Source: Pseudomonadota bacterium (GTDB lineage: Bacteria > Pseudomonadota > Alphaproteobacteria > UBA2136 > JASBTF01). From it: 64,000 nucleotides of DNA. Below the pieces are notes generated by a model that saw nothing but the letters and a program-made list of their open reading frames with translations, did not search any database and was not told the origin of the DNA. Positions 4,565 to 50,294 of the stretch are shown here, in pieces. The DNA is taken from assembly GCA_030148545.1 (NCBI GenBank), contig JASBTF010000003.1:250-64249 (forward strand), given 5' to 3'. How positions within the stretch are numbered: position 1 is the stretch's first letter; the number at the start of each line of letters is the position of its first letter. The position numbers and the translations under genes are program-made.

Positions 4565-4640
4565 TGGCAGGGGTGAAAGGATTCGAACCCTCGACACCTG
4601 GTTTTGGAGACCAGTGCTCTACCAGCTGAGCTACACCCCT
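4565..4640 (-). tRNA. tRNA-Trp(CCA)
   Basis: Cloverleaf with anticodon arm CTGGT-CT-CCA-AA-ACCAG, GGTTCGAATCC T-arm and encoded CCA end. Confidence 0.97.
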
Positions 4641-4724
4641 ACGTCGGATGGATTATGTACCGAGTTTTGGCCAGAAAAGCAATTTTTAATTTACCTTATC
4701 GGGTGGTTTACCTACACTGCGGCC

Positions 4725-6143
4725 ATGGTTACCCACGTTAAGCTTTACAATACGCTACATCGCGAGAAAGAAATTTTTACACCACGTACTGATGGTGAGG
4801 TGCAAGTTTACACCTGTGGGCCTACTGTGTACCACGATGCGCATATTGGGAATATGCGCGCATTTATGACTGCAGATATTCTTAAAAAAACGTTGAAGCT
4901 AGCGGGTTACACGGTTCACCATGTGATGAATATTACCGATGTTGGTCACTTAACCGATGATGGTGATGCCGGTGAAGATAAAATGTTGGTGGCGATGCGT
5001 CGTGAAGGCAAAACCGCAGCTGAAATTGCAGAATTTTACACCGAGCGTTTTGTTACTGATGCTGAAGTATTAAATATTGATTTGCCGCAAGGGAAGGACA
5101 TGCCCCGTGCGACGGCGTATATTCCGCAACAGATTGAGATGGTGCAACAGCTGGAAGCTAAAGGTTATACTTACCAAACAAGCGATGGCGTGTATTTTGA
5201 TACCTCTAAGCTGAAAGATTACGGCAAGCTGGCCAAATTAGATTTGGAGAACTTAAACGCTGGTGAACGTGTATCGATAGGGGAGAAGCGTAACCCAACC
5301 GATTTTGCGCTTTGGAAGTTAAGCCCAACCAATGCTAAGCGTGATATGGAATGGGATAGCCCGTGGGGTAAGGGTTTTCCTGGCTGGCATATTGAGTGTT
5401 CTGCCATGAGCCGTGCCATTTTTGGTGATGTGTTTGATATTCATACCGGTGGAATTGACCATATTCCTGTGCATCATACTAATGAGATTGCTCAGTCAGA
5501 GGTCGCTTGTGGCTGCGAAAAACACGTCAACTATTGGCTACATAACGAATTTGTGGTGCTAGGGCAGGGCGCTAAAATGAGTAAATCTAGCGGTAACTTC
5601 CTTACCGTGGCAGGCTTGCAGGAGAAAGGTTTTCACCCGTTAGCGCTACGTTATTTATATTTGCAAACCCATTACCGCAAGAGCGTTAAATTTGATTGGG
5701 ATATTTTGGCGGATGCTCAAACAGCGCTCAAGCGCTTATGGCAACGTTCCGCAGGTGTTGATTTCAATACACGTAACCAAACAGCTCAGTTGAGCGAAGT
5801 TATTCAAATAGCGTTGTGTGATGACCTTAATACAGCTGAAGCGCTAGCCAAGCTGTGGGATGGTTTAAAACAACTAGAGGGCGCAGAGCTTGCTACTATG
5901 CTGTGGCAGGCGGAAGAGGTGTTATCACTCGGGTTGGCCAATGCACAGCAAATGCTGGATGAGTTGGCTAAGCTCACTGCTGTGGATGACGTGTCAGCTG
6001 AGTTACAAGAACTGTTGGCACAGCGCCAGCAAGCGCGTGCTGCTAAGGATTTTGCACAGGCAGATGCATTGCGTGATAAAATTTTAGCGGCTGGCTATAA
6101 GGTAGTCGATACTGCTGACGGCGCTAAATTAGAACGTATTTAA
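4725..6143 (+). CDS. cysS: Cysteine--tRNA ligase
   Basis: Motifs CGPTVY, HIGN, PGWHIECSAM and KMSKS. Start moved to ATG 4725 because the longer ORF overlaps the tRNA. Confidence 0.97.
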   Translation: MVTHVKLYNTLHREKEIFTPRTDGEVQVYTCGPTVYHDAHIGNMRAFMTADILKKTLKLAGYTVHHVMNITDVGHLTDDGDAGEDKMLVAMRREGKTAAEIAEFYTERFVTDAEVLNIDLPQGKDMPRATAYIPQQIEMVQQLEAKGYTYQTSDGVYFDTSKLKDYGKLAKLDLENLNAGERVSIGEKRNPTDFALWKLSPTNAKRDMEWDSPWGKGFPGWHIECSAMSRAIFGDVFDIHTGGIDHIPVHHTNEIAQSEVACGCEKHVNYWLHNEFVVLGQGAKMSKSSGNFLTVAGLQEKGFHPLALRYLYLQTHYRKSVKFDWDILADAQTALKRLWQRSAGVDFNTRNQTAQLSEVIQIALCDDLNTAEALAKLWDGLKQLEGAELATMLWQAEEVLSLGLANAQQMLDELAKLTAVDDVSAELQELLAQRQQARAAKDFAQADALRDKILAAGYKVVDTADGAKLERI

Positions 6144-6874: not shown

Positions 6875-7189
6875 TTATGCTGCAGTTTGCGGTGCTTTAA
6901 CCACAAAGCTGGTGGCATATTGCTGATTAGCGCGGTCGAACGCACATAGGCGAATATGCGCAAAGGGGAAGCGCTTGGCACAGGTATCAATTTGGCTCAT
7001 CACCCAGTGCGTGGTTAGTTTGGCTTGGCGCGGTAGTGGCCATAATTTCCAATAAACTTCATCTGGTGCTGGGTTTTCAGCAAACTCAATTAGTGGCAAT
7101 AGGTCATGTTCCAACATATTTTCTACCTGAGACTCAATTTGCCCAGGAGAGAGTGGTGGTAGGAATGAGAAAGTTTCAAAGCGTGACAT
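6875..7189 (-). CDS. RuBisCO small-subunit (RbcS/CbbS)-like protein
   Basis: RbcS signatures FETFSFLPPLS, IEF, YWKLWPLP, FPFAHIRLCAFD and SFVV; AAGGA RBS; 22 nt downstream of the RbcL-like gene. Confidence 0.9.
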   Translation of the reverse strand: MSRFETFSFLPPLSPGQIESQVENMLEHDLLPLIEFAENPAPDEVYWKLWPLPRQAKLTTHWVMSQIDTCAKRFPFAHIRLCAFDRANQQYATSFVVKAPQTAA

Positions 7190-7211
7190 AATAATTAATC
7201 CTTATTAAACC

Positions 7212-8897
7212 TTATTTGTCGCGGTCGCCATCAATAGAGCGTAGCGTGGTTTTTGTTTTTGGCTTTTTAGCTGCTTTTTCCTGCACTACGGTGCCACTAA
7301 CGCCGTCTTTCTGGTCACCTAAAATAACACCAAACAGGAAGGATTCTTCAGCCCAGTATTCCAATGCTACCTTTAGCTCAGGCGCATATTTTTGTGCATG
7401 GGTAAGAATTTGTTTGCTTTCTACAGTTAGGTTGCGGCCTTCACCACGGGCTTGCATCACAGCTTCAATAGCGGTGCGGTTGGCAGTGGCGCCAGCAGCA
7501 CTACCCCATGGGTGGCCCATAACACTACCACCACATTGAATAATTAGGTCTGGCCCTAAAGCATCTACCAAACGTGGGAAGTGCCATGGGTTATGCCCAC
7601 CACCCACAGCGGGGAGGCTAGTTGCATGGTTAGCAAAGGACTGGGCATAGCGTAGGCCTGTTTCCATCTCTACTTCAATGTGTTGCTGCGTAAGTGCAGA
7701 GGTAACCCCACGTACAGCACGGCGGCCACTTGTGCCACCACGTAGCGGACTTGCGGTACTCACAACATCGGCACCGGCAAGGCGCAATAGTTTAGCTTGC
7801 ACTTGCTCGGTTAAAATATCGCCACTCAAGGTACGGCTACCCATGGCACAGAGAATCATATCGTTTTGGCGGCACCATGTAGCTAGCGATTGCAATGCAA
7901 TCCACCCAATTACACTGCTATCCACCAAAATCATGTTGAGACCGAGCTGTTTCACCAACTCAGCGCGTTGTAGCATGCCTTCTATTGTTGGGGCTGTTAC
8001 GTTGGCAGCATGGCATTTAAACTCGTTTGTGTCGGCTTGGGCACTGTGCACGGCATCGGCCAAGTATTGGAAACGTTCGCGCCATTGGTTGCTAGGAATA
8101 CTGTGCAGCAACGTTGGGTCGGCCGTAATATCTACACCGCCTTTTAATGTTTCAAAAGCAGCACGGCCGTACATGCGTGGGGATAGGCCCATCATAGGGC
8201 GCATGGTTACGCTGAGTAGAGGGCGGCCAAACTTGCCTGTAAAATCGCGCAGGCCATTGCTGCCAAAAGCAGGGCCTGGGAAGGTGCGCAGAAGTAAATC
8301 TGGAATACGAATATCTACCAGCTTAGCATCGGTACTGGTGGCGGCAGAGCCGAGCACGGCGAGTAAGCCAACAAGTGAACCATCTTCTACCATGCCATGT
8401 GGGAAGGCGAGGTCTACCTCTACACGGCGGTTACCTGTTTGGCGGCTATCTACCGCAATGGGGCGTGGTGTTTTGGCTTTATCTACAAATTGTTCGGTCC
8501 ATGCTTCAATCCAAGCACCGTGAGCGGCGTTTTTCAGCAGTTGCGCTGCTTCGGCAGGGCTGCGGTCGGTGTCGGGAAGTACGTAGGTGGCAAGCACATC
8601 GGTTAGGTCGCTGTTGCTTTGTGTCGCTTGGCTTTCGGTTTCCTTAGTGCTGGTGGTTACAGCAGCTGGGCCATTGGTGGTTAGGCCTGTTAGTGCATCT
8701 AGGCTGATTTCCAGTACTTGGGCAATTTTCACCATATTACTAATGGATGGGTTTACTTGCCCAGAGAGAATACGGCTGAGAGTGGCAAGGGATACGCCTG
8801 ATTTTTCAGCAAGTTCTGCTGCGGTCATGTCCTGCTGTTGCAGCGCTGTTTTAAGGGTATTGCCAAGTTGTTGGGATTCGTTAGTGGGCGTACTCAC
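7212..8897 (-). CDS. XRE-family HTH domain fused to a catalytically degenerate Form I-like RuBisCO large subunit
   Basis: N-terminal MTAAELAEKSGVSLATLSRILSGQVNPSISNMVKIAQVLEISLDAL (Cro/C1 HTH), then an S/T-rich linker, then RbcL landmarks TFPGP, KFGRPLL, LKGGVD, WRERF, NVTA, WCRQNDMIL, GHPWG.AAGATANR.A.EA, ARGEGRNL and PEL. KDDE is replaced by ADPT. Confidence 0.9.
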   Translation of the reverse strand: MSTPTNESQQLGNTLKTALQQQDMTAAELAEKSGVSLATLSRILSGQVNPSISNMVKIAQVLEISLDALTGLTTNGPAAVTTSTKETESQATQSNSDLTDVLATYVLPDTDRSPAEAAQLLKNAAHGAWIEAWTEQFVDKAKTPRPIAVDSRQTGNRRVEVDLAFPHGMVEDGSLVGLLAVLGSAATSTDAKLVDIRIPDLLLRTFPGPAFGSNGLRDFTGKFGRPLLSVTMRPMMGLSPRMYGRAAFETLKGGVDITADPTLLHSIPSNQWRERFQYLADAVHSAQADTNEFKCHAANVTAPTIEGMLQRAELVKQLGLNMILVDSSVIGWIALQSLATWCRQNDMILCAMGSRTLSGDILTEQVQAKLLRLAGADVVSTASPLRGGTSGRRAVRGVTSALTQQHIEVEMETGLRYAQSFANHATSLPAVGGGHNPWHFPRLVDALGPDLIIQCGGSVMGHPWGSAAGATANRTAIEAVMQARGEGRNLTVESKQILTHAQKYAPELKVALEYWAEESFLFGVILGDQKDGVSGTVVQEKAAKKPKTKTTLRSIDGDRDK

Positions 8898-8921
8898 GGG
8901 ATAGCTAACCTTATACTTATT

Positions 8922-8964
8922 TTTCAGATATGATATTCATAGCGAATATCTTCCATATCTGCAA
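8922..8964 (-). promoter_or_regulatory. Predicted sigma70 promoter overlapped by two inverted operator-like pseudo-palindromes
   Basis: Minus strand reads TTGCAG-N17-TATGAA. Boxes are TTTCAGATATGATA (8922-8935, +) and TTGCAGATATGGAA (8951-8964, -). Confidence 0.6.
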
Positions 8965-9089
8965 GTGATACGTAAGAAATTAATGCGCTGGTAAAATGAA
9001 TTTAATAGCATAGCTAAGGGCGGTGACACTTAAAATACCACCGCACCATAGTGCTGCAAACCACAACCATTGTTTGGTGTGCTTACTCA

Positions 9090-10115
9090 TTAATACATAC
9101 TTTCTTCGGAGCTTTTGCCACGGAAAATCCAGTAGCAGTAAGCTGTATAAGCCAGAATAATTGGCAACATAAGTAGCGCACCAACTAACAATAGTGAGAG
9201 TGACGTACTAGCGGCAGCAGCATCCCACAGGGTGTACTCAAATGGAACAATCCATGGCCACAGGCTAATGCCTAAGCCAATATAGCCAAGTAGGAAGAGT
9301 ACCATGGCAAGTATAAAGGGGCGAATTTCTATATCGCGGTTTAAATCCTTCCACAGCCAAATACACACACCAAGGGTGAGCAATGGCACAGGCAACAATA
9401 GGAAGAAGTTTGGTAGGCTGAACCATAGCTCTGCAATGCGGGTATCAATAAATGGCATGCTGAGGCTAACAACACCCATGAACACCACAACAAATAGCAA
9501 GATATAGCGCGCAGCTTGGCGTGCCCAGCTTTGGAGCTTACCGTCGGATTTCATAACAATCCACGTTGCGCCAAGTAGAGCATAACCAAAGATAACAGCA
9601 ATACCAGTAAGCAATGCAAAGCCGTTAGCCCAGTCCAGCGGGCCGCCACCGTATTCACCATTAGCAACTTCTACACCTTGTACAAAGTTACCCAAGATAA
9701 TGCCTTGCATGAGGGCCGCAAACAGGGAGCCAAAGTGGAAGGTAGCATCCCAAAATGCGCGAGATTTTGCAGTATCGGACTTGAAGCGGAATTCAAACGC
9801 TACGCCACGGCAAATAAGCCCAAGTAGCATGAGAATAACGGGTAGGTACAGTGCGGGTAGCAATATGGCATAAGCTTTGGGGAAGGCAACAAAAAGTCCG
9901 CCACCACCAAGTACAAGCCATGTTTCATTAGCATCCCAAAAGGGTGCAATGGCATTCATCATACGGGCGCGTTCTTTATGGTCTCCAGCGAAGGGGAATA
10001 GAATACCCACACCCAGGTCAAAGCCGTCGAGCCATACATACATAAATACAGCTACTGCTACTAATACGCCCCAAATTAAAGGGAGGTCTAGCCATGTTCC
10101 AAAATCAAACATCAT
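9090..10115 (-). CDS. cydB: Cytochrome bd ubiquinol oxidase subunit II (CIO-like)
   Basis: Motifs LDGFDLGVG, PFWDANETWL and RGVAFEFR. Confidence 0.96.
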   Translation of the reverse strand: MMFDFGTWLDLPLIWGVLVAVAVFMYVWLDGFDLGVGILFPFAGDHKERARMMNAIAPFWDANETWLVLGGGGLFVAFPKAYAILLPALYLPVILMLLGLICRGVAFEFRFKSDTAKSRAFWDATFHFGSLFAALMQGIILGNFVQGVEVANGEYGGGPLDWANGFALLTGIAVIFGYALLGATWIVMKSDGKLQSWARQAARYILLFVVVFMGVVSLSMPFIDTRIAELWFSLPNFFLLLPVPLLTLGVCIWLWKDLNRDIEIRPFILAMVLFLLGYIGLGISLWPWIVPFEYTLWDAAAASTSLSLLLVGALLMLPIILAYTAYCYWIFRGKSSEESMY

Positions 10116-46500: not shown

Positions 46501-46821
46501 GTGAGTGTGACAAACACAACCGATACAAATTTTGAGCAAGATGTACTGCAAGCTGGCACTCCTGTGTTGGTAGACTTTTGGGCAGAATGGTGTGGCCCAT
46601 GTAAGCAAGTTGCCCCAGTATTGGACGAGCTAGCAACCGAAATGGGTGACAATGTAAAAATTGTTAAAGTGAATATTGATGAAAACCCAGAAACGCCTGT
46701 TAAATACGGTGTGCGTGGTATTCCAACCCTCATGCTGTTTAAAGACGGCGAACTGGCAGACACCAAAGTGGGCGCCTTGCCAAAAAGCCAGCTAAGCGAA
46801 TGGCTAAGTAGCCAAGCTTAA
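46501..46821 (+). CDS. trxA: Thioredoxin
   Basis: WCGPC and VRGIPTL; AGGAG RBS before GTG 46501. Confidence 0.96.
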
Positions 46822-46860
46822 GTAAGCTAAAGAACTTTAAAAGCCGCCGTTTGGTGGCTT

Positions 46861-47139
46861 TTATTTTAGGTTGTGACGTTTATCAAGTTCTTGCTTTTCG
46901 CGTATAAATTTTTCTTTTAAACGCTTTTCTACAGTAGATTTCATAACCTGTTTAACTCCGCTACTAGCTCGGTAGTAATTGGGGTTTTTATAAAGCTTGT
47001 TTAAAGCTTCAAAACGTTCTTCTGCTTGTTGCAGCTTCAGGGCACCAATATCTTTTTGGTAAGCTTTAGATGGTATTGCTGATGCAGCCAATGCTGAGAT
47101 TGGTAATATGGTAATGAGCAGTAATTTAAGGCCTAACAC
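46861..47139 (-). CDS. Small exported hypothetical protein
   Basis: Signal-peptide-like N-terminus; 92 aa. Confidence 0.45.
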   Translation of the reverse strand: MLGLKLLLITILPISALAASAIPSKAYQKDIGALKLQQAEERFEALNKLYKNPNYYRASSGVKQVMKSTVEKRLKEKFIREKQELDKRHNLK

Positions 47140-47212
47140 GCCTGTTTATGAGGCTAAGCTTTAAAAATAGTGCTTGTTAAATTGCCAGTTCTTATAAACT
47201 GACAATAGAGCA

Positions 47213-47878
47213 CTACGGATTAATAACTGGTGGTGGTGCAGGGCTCGGAATAGGCTGTGGCGCAGCAGGGTTTGGTACTCCTGGTGCTGGGTTAGGGTTA
47301 ACTCTTAAGCCATCGTCAGGCTGTGATGGCGTATTAGCAGGTGTCCAACCATTATACCTTGCTTCACATAGAGCAATAGCAGATATATCTGTCAGGTGTG
47401 CACACTGTGGTACTGTTTGTGGACCGCCAACAGCTGGTACATGAGTGCCGGTGCCTGTTGGCTCTCCTGACCCTGTGGAAGGATCATAGCCAGAGTAAGG
47501 CGTAAAACCATCGCTAGGGGTGCAGGTATCTGCTTCTCTCAATACACCAATACCATTCGGGCGTAGCGAGCTAGTTACATCGGCCATGTATTGTAAGCCG
47601 CTCTGGTAAATTTGTGGAATAGCAGTAAGTGATGTGCCAATTAAAACCATGATAATTCCCATGCTTTTACCATCACCGCTAAAGAACATAAAAGCGCCTG
47701 CCGCAGCAATAGCAATACCCAATAGCAAGCCAAGGTTACCGCTAAGTACATTTTGTACAGAGCAGTATAACTGTCGGCCATAGTCTGCACCATGTGCCGC
47801 AGCAGGGTCGGCACCAACTTGTGCAATAGCCATTGTTGAAAAACCTAAAACCAATAAAGAAAGTATTAAACGCACCAT
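47213..47878 (-). CDS. Signal peptide, TrbC/VirB2-pilin-like double-TM region and Pro-rich tail
   Basis: AIA|Q leader, two hydrophobic helices (LGLLLGIAIAAAGAFMFF; MGIIMVLIG), Cys pair and Pro-rich C-terminus. Confidence 0.55.
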   Translation of the reverse strand: MVRLILSLLVLGFSTMAIAQVGADPAAAHGADYGRQLYCSVQNVLSGNLGLLLGIAIAAAGAFMFFSGDGKSMGIIMVLIGTSLTAIPQIYQSGLQYMADVTSSLRPNGIGVLREADTCTPSDGFTPYSGYDPSTGSGEPTGTGTHVPAVGGPQTVPQCAHLTDISAIALCEARYNGWTPANTPSQPDDGLRVNPNPAPGVPNPAAPQPIPSPAPPPVINP

Positions 47879-48053
47879 ATATTTATAATGTAGGGCGCAA
47901 ATGCGGTGGACGCAAGTGCTGAGTTAGCGTATAACCTCCCGGTAAGACAGCAATTATACGGAGCCCACGTTGTGAGTGGGGCGGCATGAAGCGGATGAGC
48001 GGATTCCCCGTGGCGGCTGTGAGAGATAACAATAGATAAAGGATCAATACACC

Positions 48054-50294
48054 ATGTTTAACGTGTATTCCAAAACTGTACAGTGGGGCGGTCAAGAGCT
48101 CAAACTAGAAACTGGCCGCGTTGCTCGTCAGGCTGATGGCGCTGTGATGGCTACATACGGCAACACAACTGTGCTTGCTACAGTATGTTTTGCTAAGCAA
48201 GAACGCCCAGATATGGACTTTTTCCCACTAACCGTTAACTACCAAGAGAAATTCTACTCAGCTGGTCGTATTCCTGGTGGTTTCTTCAAGCGTGAAGGTC
48301 GCCCAACTGAGAAAGAAACACTGACAAGTCGTTTGATCGACCGTCCAATTCGTCCACTATTTACCAAAGGTTTTAAAAACGAAACTCAGGTAGTAACAAC
48401 TGTACTAAGCACTGATGGTGAGAATGATGCTGATGTTGTAGCAATGGTTGCAGCAAGTGCTGCGCTGGCTATTTCTGGTGCACCATTTATGGGCCCAATT
48501 GGTTGTGCTCGTGTAGGCTACATTAATAACGAGTTTGTTTTGAACCCAACCACTGCTCAGCGTGAAGAGAGCGCTCTGGACATGGTTGTTGCCGGTACAG
48601 ATGAAGGCGTACTGATGGTTGAATCTGAAGCGAGTGAGCTAAGCGAAGAAACCATGCTGCAAGCTGTTAACCTGGCGCATGAAGAAGGTAAAAAAGCAAT
48701 TAACGCTATTAACGAGCTGGCTAAAGAAGCTGCTAAAACGGCGTTTGAAATGCCTGCACAGCCAGATAATAGCGAGCTAGAAACTAAGCTGCGTGACCAG
48801 TTTGGTACTGCTATTACCGAAGCTTACAAAATTCAGGAAAAGCAAGCACGCCGCACTGCATTGGATGAAGTGAAAACTCAAGCTCTAACCGCTATTTGTG
48901 GTGCAGATGAAGAAGCACGCGATGCCGCTGAAGTGAAAACTGTAAGCAGCATTGTTAAAGGCCTAGAAGCTGATGTATTGCGTGGTGATGTTTTGACCAC
49001 CCAAAAACGTATTGATGGCCGTGGTACTGCCGATGTTCGCCAAATTAAGGCGGAAGTAGATGTGCTGCCAACTGTTCACGGTAGTGCTTTGTTCACCCGT
49101 GGTGAAACTCAAGCGTTGGTAGTAACCACTTTGGGTACCGGCTCTGACGAGCAAATTATTGATGCACCAACAGGTGAGTTTAAAGACCGCTTTATGCTGC
49201 ATTACAACTTCCCTCCATTTAGTGTGGGTGAAACTGGCCGTATGGGTTCACCAGGTCGCCGTGAAATTGGTCACGGCCGTTTGGCCCGTCGCGCTATTGA
49301 GCGCATGCTGCCAGATGCGGAAGAATTCCCATACACCATGCGTATTGTGAGTGAAATTACCGAATCTAACGGTTCTTCCTCCATGGCTACCGTATGTGGT
49401 ACCAGCATGGCGCTAATGGCTAGTGGTGTACCAATGGCTAAGCCAGTTGCCGGTATTGCTATGGGCTTGGTGAAAGAGAACGATGATTACGTGGTTCTTT
49501 CTGACATCATGGGTGATGAAGACCACCTAGGTGATATGGACTTTAAAGTAGCTGGTACTTCCGATGGTATTACCGCCCTGCAAATGGACATTAAAATCAC
49601 CTCTATCACCAGCTCTATTATGCAAGAGGCCTTGGCTCAAGCTAAGGATGGCCGTTTGCACATTTTGGGTAAAATGGCTGAAGCAATTACTGAAGGTCGC
49701 TCAGGTGTATCCGATACTGCTCCAGTTATGGAACGCATCCAAATTGATAAAGATAAGATCCGTGTGGTGATTGGTTCTGGTGGTAAAACTATCCGTGAAC
49801 TCGTTGAAACTACTGGCTGTACTATCGATATCGACGATGAAGGTATTGTGACTATTGCTGGTGTTGGTGAGCAGAAGGTTGAAAATGCAATTATGACCAT
49901 TGAGCGCTTACTGCAAGACCCTGAAGTTGGTGAAATGTACGAGGGTACGGTAACCAACATTGTGGACTTTGGTGCTTTTGTTAAGTTCCTACCACAGCAC
50001 GAAGGTTTGCTACACATTAGCGAGCTGGTACCAGTACGTGTTGGTAATACTACCGATATTCTGGAAGAAGGCGATACTGTACAGGTTAAAGTGGTTGGCT
50101 TTGAGCGTGGTAAAGTACGCTTGACCATGAAGGACATTCCACAAGATACACCTGTTGCTGAGCGTGTAGCTTCTGTAATTGAGCAGGGCGGTACCGCAAG
50201 CAGTGACGATAACAACGGTGGTGAGCGCAAAGAGCGTAAAGACCGTGGCGATCGTAAAAAGAGCGGTGGCCGTGGCCCACGTCGTGCTGCGTAA
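48054..50294 (+). CDS. pnp: Polyribonucleotide nucleotidyltransferase
   Basis: Motifs [36 protein letters not shown] and GDMDFKVAG; KH and S1 domains. Confidence 0.99.

Follow-up and report, generated by a model that had tools for sequence, protein, structure and literature searches.

Form I RuBisCO is built from large subunits (RbcL) and small subunits (RbcS) that assemble into an L8S8 particle, with RbcS binding only between L2 dimers, and Form IV RuBisCO-like proteins (RLPs) are, to our knowledge, made without a small subunit. Among regulators, HipB, SinR, and other XRE proteins bind palindromes as dimers, and PutA, BirA, and NadR are examples of trigger enzymes. The RLPs characterized so far are enzymes and have catalytic steps in common with RuBisCO (PMC10176493). 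In XRE-cupin proteins an XRE head is combined with a domain that senses small molecules (PMC10965056), and in BzdR an XRE-type helix-turn-helix (HTH) domain is followed by a linker and an effector that once was a shikimate kinase, the loss of enzymatic activity having been needed for regulation (PMC3602430). Here we analyze a gene that joins these two worlds. It lies at 7212..8897 on the minus strand of a 64,000-nucleotide stretch from an alphaproteobacterial genome (contig JASBTF010000003.1, positions 250 to 64,249; hereafter the window) and encodes a protein, termed HTH-RbcL, in which an XRE-type HTH is fused to a Form I-like RuBisCO large subunit with a remodeled active-site pocket.

HTH-RbcL has the same order of parts and the same logic as BzdR—HTH, linker, and former enzyme domain—but its effector has the RuBisCO fold and not that of shikimate kinase, an RbcS-like protein is co-encoded, and no catabolic operon is found nearby. 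The HTH of the window protein also weakly matches the BzdR-type NCBIfam model PRK08154 (E 1.1e-7), and the resemblance is one of design, not of descent. Among solved chains, this HTH is nearest to HipB, SinR, and other XRE regulators, with which HTH-RbcL also shares a palindromic operator predicted at its own promoter, and the combination of an XRE head with a C-terminal partner domain recalls the XRE-cupin regulators PuuR and PsdR. In contrast to all of these, the partner is a 430-residue RuBisCO large subunit that comes with a separate small subunit. Like MtnW/YkrW, OiaX, and other Form IV RLPs, HTH-RbcL is in all likelihood a non-carboxylating member of the superfamily, but it has an RbcS-like partner, lacks the carbamate–Mg center, and branches elsewhere. 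With Form I RuBisCO it shares homology from about residue 31 to the C-terminus, the glycine loops of the P1 phosphate site, the C-terminal strand, and an RbcS homolog encoded directly downstream; it differs in the replacement of K175, K177, K201, D203, E204, H327, and K334 in essentially all members, in a very long stem branch (1.33), and in that PRK was not found in the genome.

Results

Architecture of the fusion protein and its active-site pocket

According to the open reading frame (ORF) list and its translation, the gene starts with GTG and encodes 561 residues followed by a stop. The initial annotation had described it as one uninterrupted frame with a full-length RbcL-like body; the frame is indeed uninterrupted and lies on the minus strand, the plus-strand frame of the same interval containing many stops. 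The HTH, previously placed at residues 11–70, covers residues 15–69 (8691..8855, minus strand), as evidenced by a Pfam HTH_3 match (PF01381; E 5.4e-15, 55.6 bits) well above the curated cut-off of 23. It is followed by the flexible S/T-rich linker that had been noted before, which by composition comprises the 27 residues 70–96 (8610..8690, minus strand) and has no consensus in the family alignment. The RbcL-like N-terminal domain (residues 97–205; 8283..8609, minus strand) was delimited by HMMER alignment to solved Form I chains; the Pfam RuBisCO_large_N match at residues 97–200 is weak (18.4 bits, under the cut-off of 20.7). In these alignments the RbcL-like part begins at about Form I residue 31–34 (query 98–99 to chain 30–35), and by this measure the canonical N-terminal arm of RuBisCO is replaced by the HTH and the linker. 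The C-terminal barrel domain with the remodeled pocket (residues 206–525; 7323..8282, minus strand) has a strong Pfam RuBisCO_large match (PF00016, residues 216–515; E 6.3e-63, 213 bits versus a cut-off of 30.1), and a Lys-rich, variable tail that is weakly conserved in the family alignment completes the protein (residues 526–561; 7215..7322, minus strand). Solved Form I chains align over query residues 98–523 with E 2e-91. The NCBIfam Form I model NF003252 gives 319.5 bits on residues 97–522, which is below its cut-off of 438, whereas true Form I references reach 739–791 bits.

Active-site positions were compared by HMMER alignment to solved Form I chains and by MAFFT alignment with five Form I sequences, which either pass the NCBIfam Form I cut-off or group with those that do. 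The catalytic roles of K201, D203, E204, H294, and T173 were taken from the literature (PMC8920986). Numbering follows spinach RbcL, and the other residues are given their usual roles. The former carbamylation and Mg2+ motif K201-D-D-E204 now reads A259-D-P-T262 (8112..8123, minus strand), in the very codons that had been named before. In addition, K175 is replaced by R233, K177 by M235, H327 by S380, K334 by G387, E60 by N123, and T65 by A128; K201, D203, and E204 correspond to A259, P261, and T262. The claim that the catalytic set is gone thus holds for E60, T65, K175, K177, K201, D203, E204, H327, and K334, and it depends on the aligner at the two remaining sites: the position of Form I N123 is occupied by S or A, and the H294/R295 region contains a 3-residue indel, with R295 deleted in the HMMER alignment and the invariant R355 placed there by MAFFT. 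The Gly-rich phosphate loops (G380, G381, G403, and G404) and the C-terminal helices are retained in the alignments, as had been seen by eye.

The replacements are not peculiar to the window protein. Column counts were made on 88 full-length relatives, namely the window protein (P0001) and 87 of the 88 clusters P0004–P0091, P0076 (468 aa) having been left out for its length. K175 is R, D203 is P, H327 is S, and S379 is G in 88/88; the K201 position is C in 47 and A in 38 (85/88 together); E204 is T in 80/88, K177 is M, L, or I in 85/88, and K334 is G in 81/88. Retained are D202 (88/88), T173 and W66 (85/88 each), and the glycines G380, G381, and G403 (88/88) and G404 (81/88), and a 40-sequence alignment shows R233, R355, R392, and R393 to be invariant. 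As read from these alignments, the pocket has lost its metal center and catalytic lysines, has kept its phosphate loops, and has gained or kept several arginines. It is among the most conserved regions of the protein, and the fixation of the replacement residues, which are not scattered, implies that the pocket was remodeled and did not decay, and gives it the signature of a functional site. Because the carbamate–Mg triad and K175 are replaced in every relative, the RuBisCO part is almost certainly unable to carboxylate by the known mechanism.

The complete K201/D203/E204 triad is kept in 17/17 Form I representatives and absent in 21 of 56 other superfamily representatives. The earlier statement that Form IV RLPs generally keep the metal site is therefore only partly right, and the loss of the triad, as far as these representatives go, is not unique in the superfamily, although it is unique within the small-subunit-bearing Form I type. 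A well-supported clade of four sequences (P0133, P0151, P0199, and P0207) has R at the K175 position in three members and L in one, and S at D203; together with 17 others, these may represent further non-canonical or non-catalytic lineages of the RuBisCO fold.

A conserved operator-like palindrome upstream of the fusion gene

In the 250 bp upstream of the fusion gene we found the near-palindrome TTNCAT-NN-ATGNAA. Twenty upstream regions could be scored, one of the 21 loci having no upstream sequence: at most one mismatch was seen in 18/20, seven of which were exact, and two mismatches in the other two (L111 and L113). There are 23 matches in 5,000 upstream bases versus eight in the remaining 317,970 bases of these loci, and dinucleotide shuffles gave a mean of 0.48 regions with a match and a maximum of three (500 shuffles). 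When all 4,128 strand-symmetric 6-mers with no more than one wildcard were enumerated, TTNCAT/ATGNAA ranked first, being present in 20/20 regions versus 165/400 control windows (Fisher p 4e-8), and for exact pairs at a spacer of 2 there are seven upstream occurrences and a single one in 100 kb of control sequence. Outside the scored sample, a perfect palindrome lies just upstream of the fusion gene in G095, a genome of another order. Upstream of an unrelated conserved gene, 0/28 other genomes have the palindrome. At least one genome with a site was found in all 13 genera, kinship making the counts overstate the number of independent events, and by eye the intergenic sequence around the sites is otherwise dissimilar.

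The sites tend to be paired. Two or more (at most two mismatches) are present in 16/20 promoters versus a background of 0.12 per 250 bp, with a start-to-start spacing of mostly 17–21 or 27–31 bp. In the window, the operator-like palindrome O1 (8951..8964, one mismatch) lies 54 bp upstream of the GTG, and the second copy O2 (8922..8935, two mismatches) is 29 bp away, center to center; both carry the same position-6 variant, and O2 is also marked by the inverted repeat I1 (11 nt, 91% complementary). Between them, at 8932..8950, there is a perfect 7-5-7 palindrome, for which 0 are expected in shuffles, and which is possibly the promoter or an extra operator. In one further genome (G015, contig C16), two identical perfect palindromes (46502–46515 and 48262–48275) bracket the HTH-rbcL gene (46579–48141) at distances of 77 bp on the upstream side and 121 bp on the downstream side, RbcS being absent there; a DNA-looping arrangement is possible.

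The recognition-helix region of the HTH is nearly invariant in an alignment of 40 relatives, which matches the conserved half-site of the operator. In 13 genera a conserved palindrome marks the promoter of the fusion gene itself, which makes sequence-specific DNA binding by the HTH very probable, and we regard it as highly likely, on these comparative grounds, that the fusion protein is a sequence-specific autoregulator. The proposal of a DNA-binding head thus gained support in silico, both from the palindrome in 18/20 upstream regions and from the HTH_3 score.

Sites elsewhere in the genomes do not point to a common function. The window genome (G000) has 33 sites with at most one mismatch, seven of them intergenic, and their neighbors are a sugar epimerase/dehydratase, a DUF218 protein, ribosomal protein S13, and unknowns; the site at the epimerase is not conserved (1/29 genomes). 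The f2 genomes show two within-genus recurrences, a site upstream of ftsQ and another within a coding region. No functional theme was found among the G000 sites, their neighbors, and ten f2 genomes; the whole-genome site scan covered G000, and a weak or degenerate regulon could escape it.

Distribution and selection

A search of 5.8 billion clustered proteins gave 97 matches. The relatives are the clusters P0004–P0092 (n=89), which are 43–58% identical to the window protein, and 84/89 contain PF01381 and PF00016 together. The same architecture, for which a search had been suggested, is thus found in other proteins. Of the five exceptions, two begin inside the HTH (P0020 and P0049) and two are fragments (P0076 and P0092), and in P0071 Pfam misses an N-terminus that resembles an HTH. 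The next-best matches are ordinary Form I sequences at 37–41% identity, and clustering at 50% reduces the family to about six representatives, directly after which Form I follows. When genome contigs were searched for loci with the protein by itself, all matches were true Form IC loci (35–38% identity). In the ESM Atlas, where the window protein itself has no entry, all members of the cluster of the homolog P0090 (n=67) have both domains. The relatives are named "hypothetical protein" in their sources and are assigned to Alphaproteobacteria or Pseudomonadota.

The window genome—a single metagenome-assembled genome of 1.14 Mb in 3 contigs, 85.8% complete—contains the fusion with a 100% match and no second RuBisCO_large match. 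The fusion is present in 25/28 other genomes of the same order (0.9–1.9 Mb), 23 copies being intact and two cut by contig ends (G003 and G027); G028, which is 54% complete, has no copy. Two genomes of genus g3 that are 96–97% complete have a match of about 115 residues to the N-domain only (G007:C2:30347-30691 and G011:C5:48233-48580); the ORFs concerned are 187–209 aa long and match fusion residues from about 90 to 208, RbcS is absent, and they are either gene remnants or stand-alone N-domain proteins. G013 (93% complete, 4% contamination) has two full-length fusions (C3 and C148), each 59% identical to the query; the bin contains either two paralogs or a mixture of two strains. Among 301 genomes sampled evenly across the class, four have the fusion (G000, G002, G095, and G265), two of which, G095 (1.6 Mb) and G265 (2.0 Mb), belong to other orders than the window genome. 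Ordinary Form I matches occur in ten genomes of this sample and start at residues 92–107. As to the HTH–RbcL junction, for which read support had been asked, a contig from an independent assembler (12,057 bp) spans 6875–8970 with 0 differences, and as it has the same probable source sample it is not independent evidence.

Selection was assessed by the ratio of nonsynonymous to synonymous substitution rates (dN/dS; NG86) in within-genus pairs, the four least saturated being L104/L105, L104/L106, L100/L103, and L101/L102 (dS 0.6–1.2). In these, dN/dS is 0.012–0.20 for the HTH, 0.021–0.17 for the RbcL N-domain, 0.017–0.08 for the C-domain, and 0.054–0.16 for the RbcS-like protein. The linker is looser, with 0.26–0.79 in three pairs and 0.0 in one pair of 15 codons, as is the tail. 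The remaining pairs are saturated or higher, as in L098/L099 (N-domain 0.48, RbcS 0.45). All parts of the fusion and the RbcS-like protein are under purifying selection, and the values of the least saturated pairs are not those of a pseudogene, a possibility that had been raised.

Among the sequencing datasets searched, no RNA match to the fusion stretch was listed, the probable source DNA run being the only one. A phage collection contained no match to the fusion, and in a plasmid collection with 338 matching records, the best eight are ordinary Form I sequences that align from residue 99 onward. Two of the 338 records, outside these eight, cover at least 80% of the query.

Place in the RuBisCO superfamily

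In a tree of 96 rows with ten reference sequences labeled by NCBIfam, the 23 rows of the family are monophyletic on a long stem (SH-like approximate likelihood ratio test 100) and sister to 17 Form I rows (97), the joint node having 99. The nearest outgroups are labeled between Form I and Form III, further clades are Form III and Form IV-like, and the Form IV-like representatives P0098 and P0164 stand in a distant clade. A tree of 40 rows recovers the family with 100/100 on a stem of 1.33 substitutions per site, the family together with Form I with 100/100, and Form I excluding the family with 94/88. A grouping of the family with one Form I subgroup was not rejected by the approximately unbiased test (p 0.26). 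From these trees we conclude that the family has descended from small-subunit-bearing Form I RuBisCO and is not a Form IV RLP, in line with the Form I-like body assigned by the initial annotation; it is either sister to the sampled Form I crown or a fast-evolving offshoot within it.

RuBisCO homologs are fused to other domains as well: TIR_2 with a RuBisCO-like domain (583 aa), which may be a defense-type protein, IF-2B, similar to ribose-1,5-bisphosphate isomerase, with RuBisCO (726–742 aa), RuBisCO with an APH phosphotransferase (1265 aa), and AAA_25 with a RuBisCO fragment (rows P0224, P0175, P0191, P0157, and P0240). None of the eight fusions of this kind that were examined has a DNA-binding domain.

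The small subunit and the neighboring genes

An RbcS-like small subunit of 104 aa is encoded 22 bp downstream of the fusion (6875..7189, minus strand), as evidenced by a Pfam RuBisCO_small match (PF00101; E 7.4e-25, 87.2 bits versus a cut-off of 27), and its family has 14 invariant columns in 18 sequences. Synteny was compared in 21 loci, that is the window and 20 fetched flanks. In 19/21 the fusion is followed by an RbcS-like ORF in the same orientation, with a gap of −23 to +40 bp in 14 loci, 402–480 bp in four, and 2,442 bp in one. Both loci without it belong to genus g3, and a profile of the 18 sequences found no RbcS in 4/4 genomes of this genus (85–97% complete; control E 6e-49). It is also present in both genomes of other orders. 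An RbcS-like subunit, as far as gene content can tell, is the rule, but it is dispensable in genus g3. Among solved structures searched with the RbcS-like profile, short green-type RbcS chains score best (E 1e-27 to 1e-24), followed by Form IA (9e-21) and red-type chains (1e-17 to 1e-13).

PRK (PF00485) gave no match anywhere in the 1.14-Mb genome (85.8% complete), and the control search matched in 11/14 genomes; the earlier remark on missing prk thereby extends from the window to the genome, no search having been made for cbbX, cbbQ/O, cbbR, or carboxysome genes. The translations show cydA and cydB upstream of the fusion. A hydrophobic 36-aa ORF (8980–9090, minus strand), the ATG of which overlaps the cydB stop (TAATG), presumably resembles the CydX-type small subunit of cytochrome bd oxidase, and 82 bp of intergenic DNA (8898–8979) separate it from the HTH-rbcL start. 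The cydAB(X) genes that adjoin the fusion in the window are not a conserved neighbor across the loci. The operon neighbors are housekeeping genes, encoding an aminoacyl-tRNA synthetase, phosphoglucomutase, FtsH, DnaE, and transporter components. A tRNA-Trp gene (4565–4640, minus strand) overlaps the listed start of the cysteinyl-tRNA synthetase ORF (4614–6143, plus strand), and the true cysS start must therefore be further downstream.

Discussion

Our data suggest, with a probability of roughly 0.55, that HTH-RbcL is an autoregulated XRE-type DNA-binding protein with a non-carboxylating Form I RbcL body, which would be made together with a retained small subunit. An RbcL-type dimer, or a higher assembly of large and small subunits that is perhaps L8S8-like, would pair the HTH heads; an L8S8-like particle is conceivable because RbcS binds only between L2 dimers. 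The heads would sit on their 27-residue linkers, attached where the N-terminal arm of RuBisCO normally lies near the active site, and the paired heads would bind the paired operators and thereby repress or tune their own operon. The metal-free pocket, with its conserved arginines and phosphate loops, could bind an anionic, probably phosphorylated, metabolite, and pocket occupancy would then alter how the linker-tethered heads sit on the DNA. That the RuBisCO body is such a ligand sensor is a tentative part of the model, to which we give somewhat less than an even chance. A bolder version, in which an L8S8-like holoenzyme is a multivalent transcription factor with up to eight HTH heads that senses a sugar-phosphate or a CO2/O2-related signal, holds paired operators together, and has a central part in metabolic regulation throughout this lineage of genome-reduced Alphaproteobacteria, is unlikely.

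It may be instead that the body and the small subunit carry out a new, metal-independent chemistry on a phosphorylated substrate and that the HTH serves autoregulation only, as in a trigger enzyme. We consider this main rival improbable. The sole conserved operator is that at the gene's own promoter, and the small subunit is kept under selection, but pathway genes are not found near the operon, where the neighbors are housekeeping genes. Invariance of the pocket residues is what an active site would show; small or hydrophobic residues (A/C, P, T, M, S, G) make up most of the replacements, however, and the toggling of the K201 position between C (47) and A (38) is unlike the behavior of a catalytic residue. 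The characterized RLPs are all enzymes (PMC10176493), but the enolization residues of the superfamily, K175, the K201 carbamate, and the Mg ligands D203/E204 (PMC8920986), are gone in HTH-RbcL. We find it quite doubtful, too, that the protein is a ligand-independent architectural factor, an L2 or L8S8-like particle with two to eight HTH heads that bridges DNA or serves the nucleoid and for which the RuBisCO body is a rigid scaffold. By homology to Form I, large and small subunits would assemble into L8S8, paired operators are present in 16/20 promoters, two perfect sites flank the gene in G015, and the genome is small and has only five HTH_3 matches, all of which suits such a factor; a pure scaffold, though, needs no invariant residues at a former substrate pocket, and exact sites are few (0–12 per genome), unlike those of nucleoid proteins.

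Two further explanations are hardly credible. A working carboxylase with an unusual active site would account for the likeness to Form I (E 2e-91) and for the small subunit, but K175, K201, D203, E204, H327, and K334 are all replaced, PRK was not found in the genome (85.8% complete), and the score lies below the NCBIfam Form I cut-off, which leaves it next to no probability. An artifact or decay, be it an assembly chimera of an XRE gene and rbcL or a dying rbcLS operon, was ruled out for practical purposes, as the fusion recurs in 25/28 genomes of the same order and in two other orders, dN/dS is 0.01–0.2 in the least saturated pairs, and the replacement residues are fixed.

Several observations weigh against the regulator reading itself. 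The palindrome was initially noticed by eye in the very regions that were later scored, L111 and L113 have only sites with two mismatches, and in G265, the second genome of another order, no site with at most one mismatch was found. Taken alone, the window has three matches with at most one mismatch versus 3.9 expected by chance, and the operator signal is, in this comparative analysis, one of positional conservation only. Exact sites total 107 in 29 genomes of the order, versus 56 for the reversed pattern, an excess of about 2-fold, and in ten f2 genomes no exact site marks a cross-genus target besides the fusion gene; the lack of a conserved second target is no less compatible with a payload that regulates itself than with a regulator. 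Genus g3 (0/4 genomes) shows that the small subunit is not strictly required, and the strong conservation of the pocket would be equally expected of a new enzyme. Finally, P0101 (487 aa) has a Lys-rich N-terminus of 25 residues in place of the HTH and may be a natural HTH-less form or the product of a mis-called start.

In the full-text literature that we searched, which includes a superfamily-wide survey and in which subscription journals are mostly and supplements entirely outside, there is no description of an HTH–RuBisCO fusion or of a non-carboxylating Form I lineage, in agreement with the earlier assertion that no protein of this architecture is described. That an enzyme joined to an HTH becomes a regulator is an established concept; the use of the RuBisCO large and small subunits in that role is apparently new. 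The known non-carboxylating relatives, the Form IV RLPs, are all enzymes and lie far from Form I in the tree. What is distinct here is a Form I large subunit, still accompanied by its small subunit, in which the carbamate–Mg center is lost and a DNA-binding head is gained, and which is kept under strong purifying selection in nearly every genome of an order with genomes of 0.9–1.9 Mb.

If the regulator model is true, HTH-RbcL would be a natural and recent-looking case of an enzyme turned transcription factor, comparable to BzdR and derived from a hetero-oligomeric holoenzyme. It would also be a natural experiment on which parts of the large/small-subunit scaffold and of the phosphate pocket can be retained without catalysis. 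Should the L8S8-like regulator exist, the RuBisCO fold would for the first time have a function that is not enzymatic, and Form I its first descendant without carboxylase activity. For the organisms, it would mean a lineage-wide regulator in an uncultured group, and its body might serve protein engineers as a possible scaffold for sugar-phosphate biosensors.

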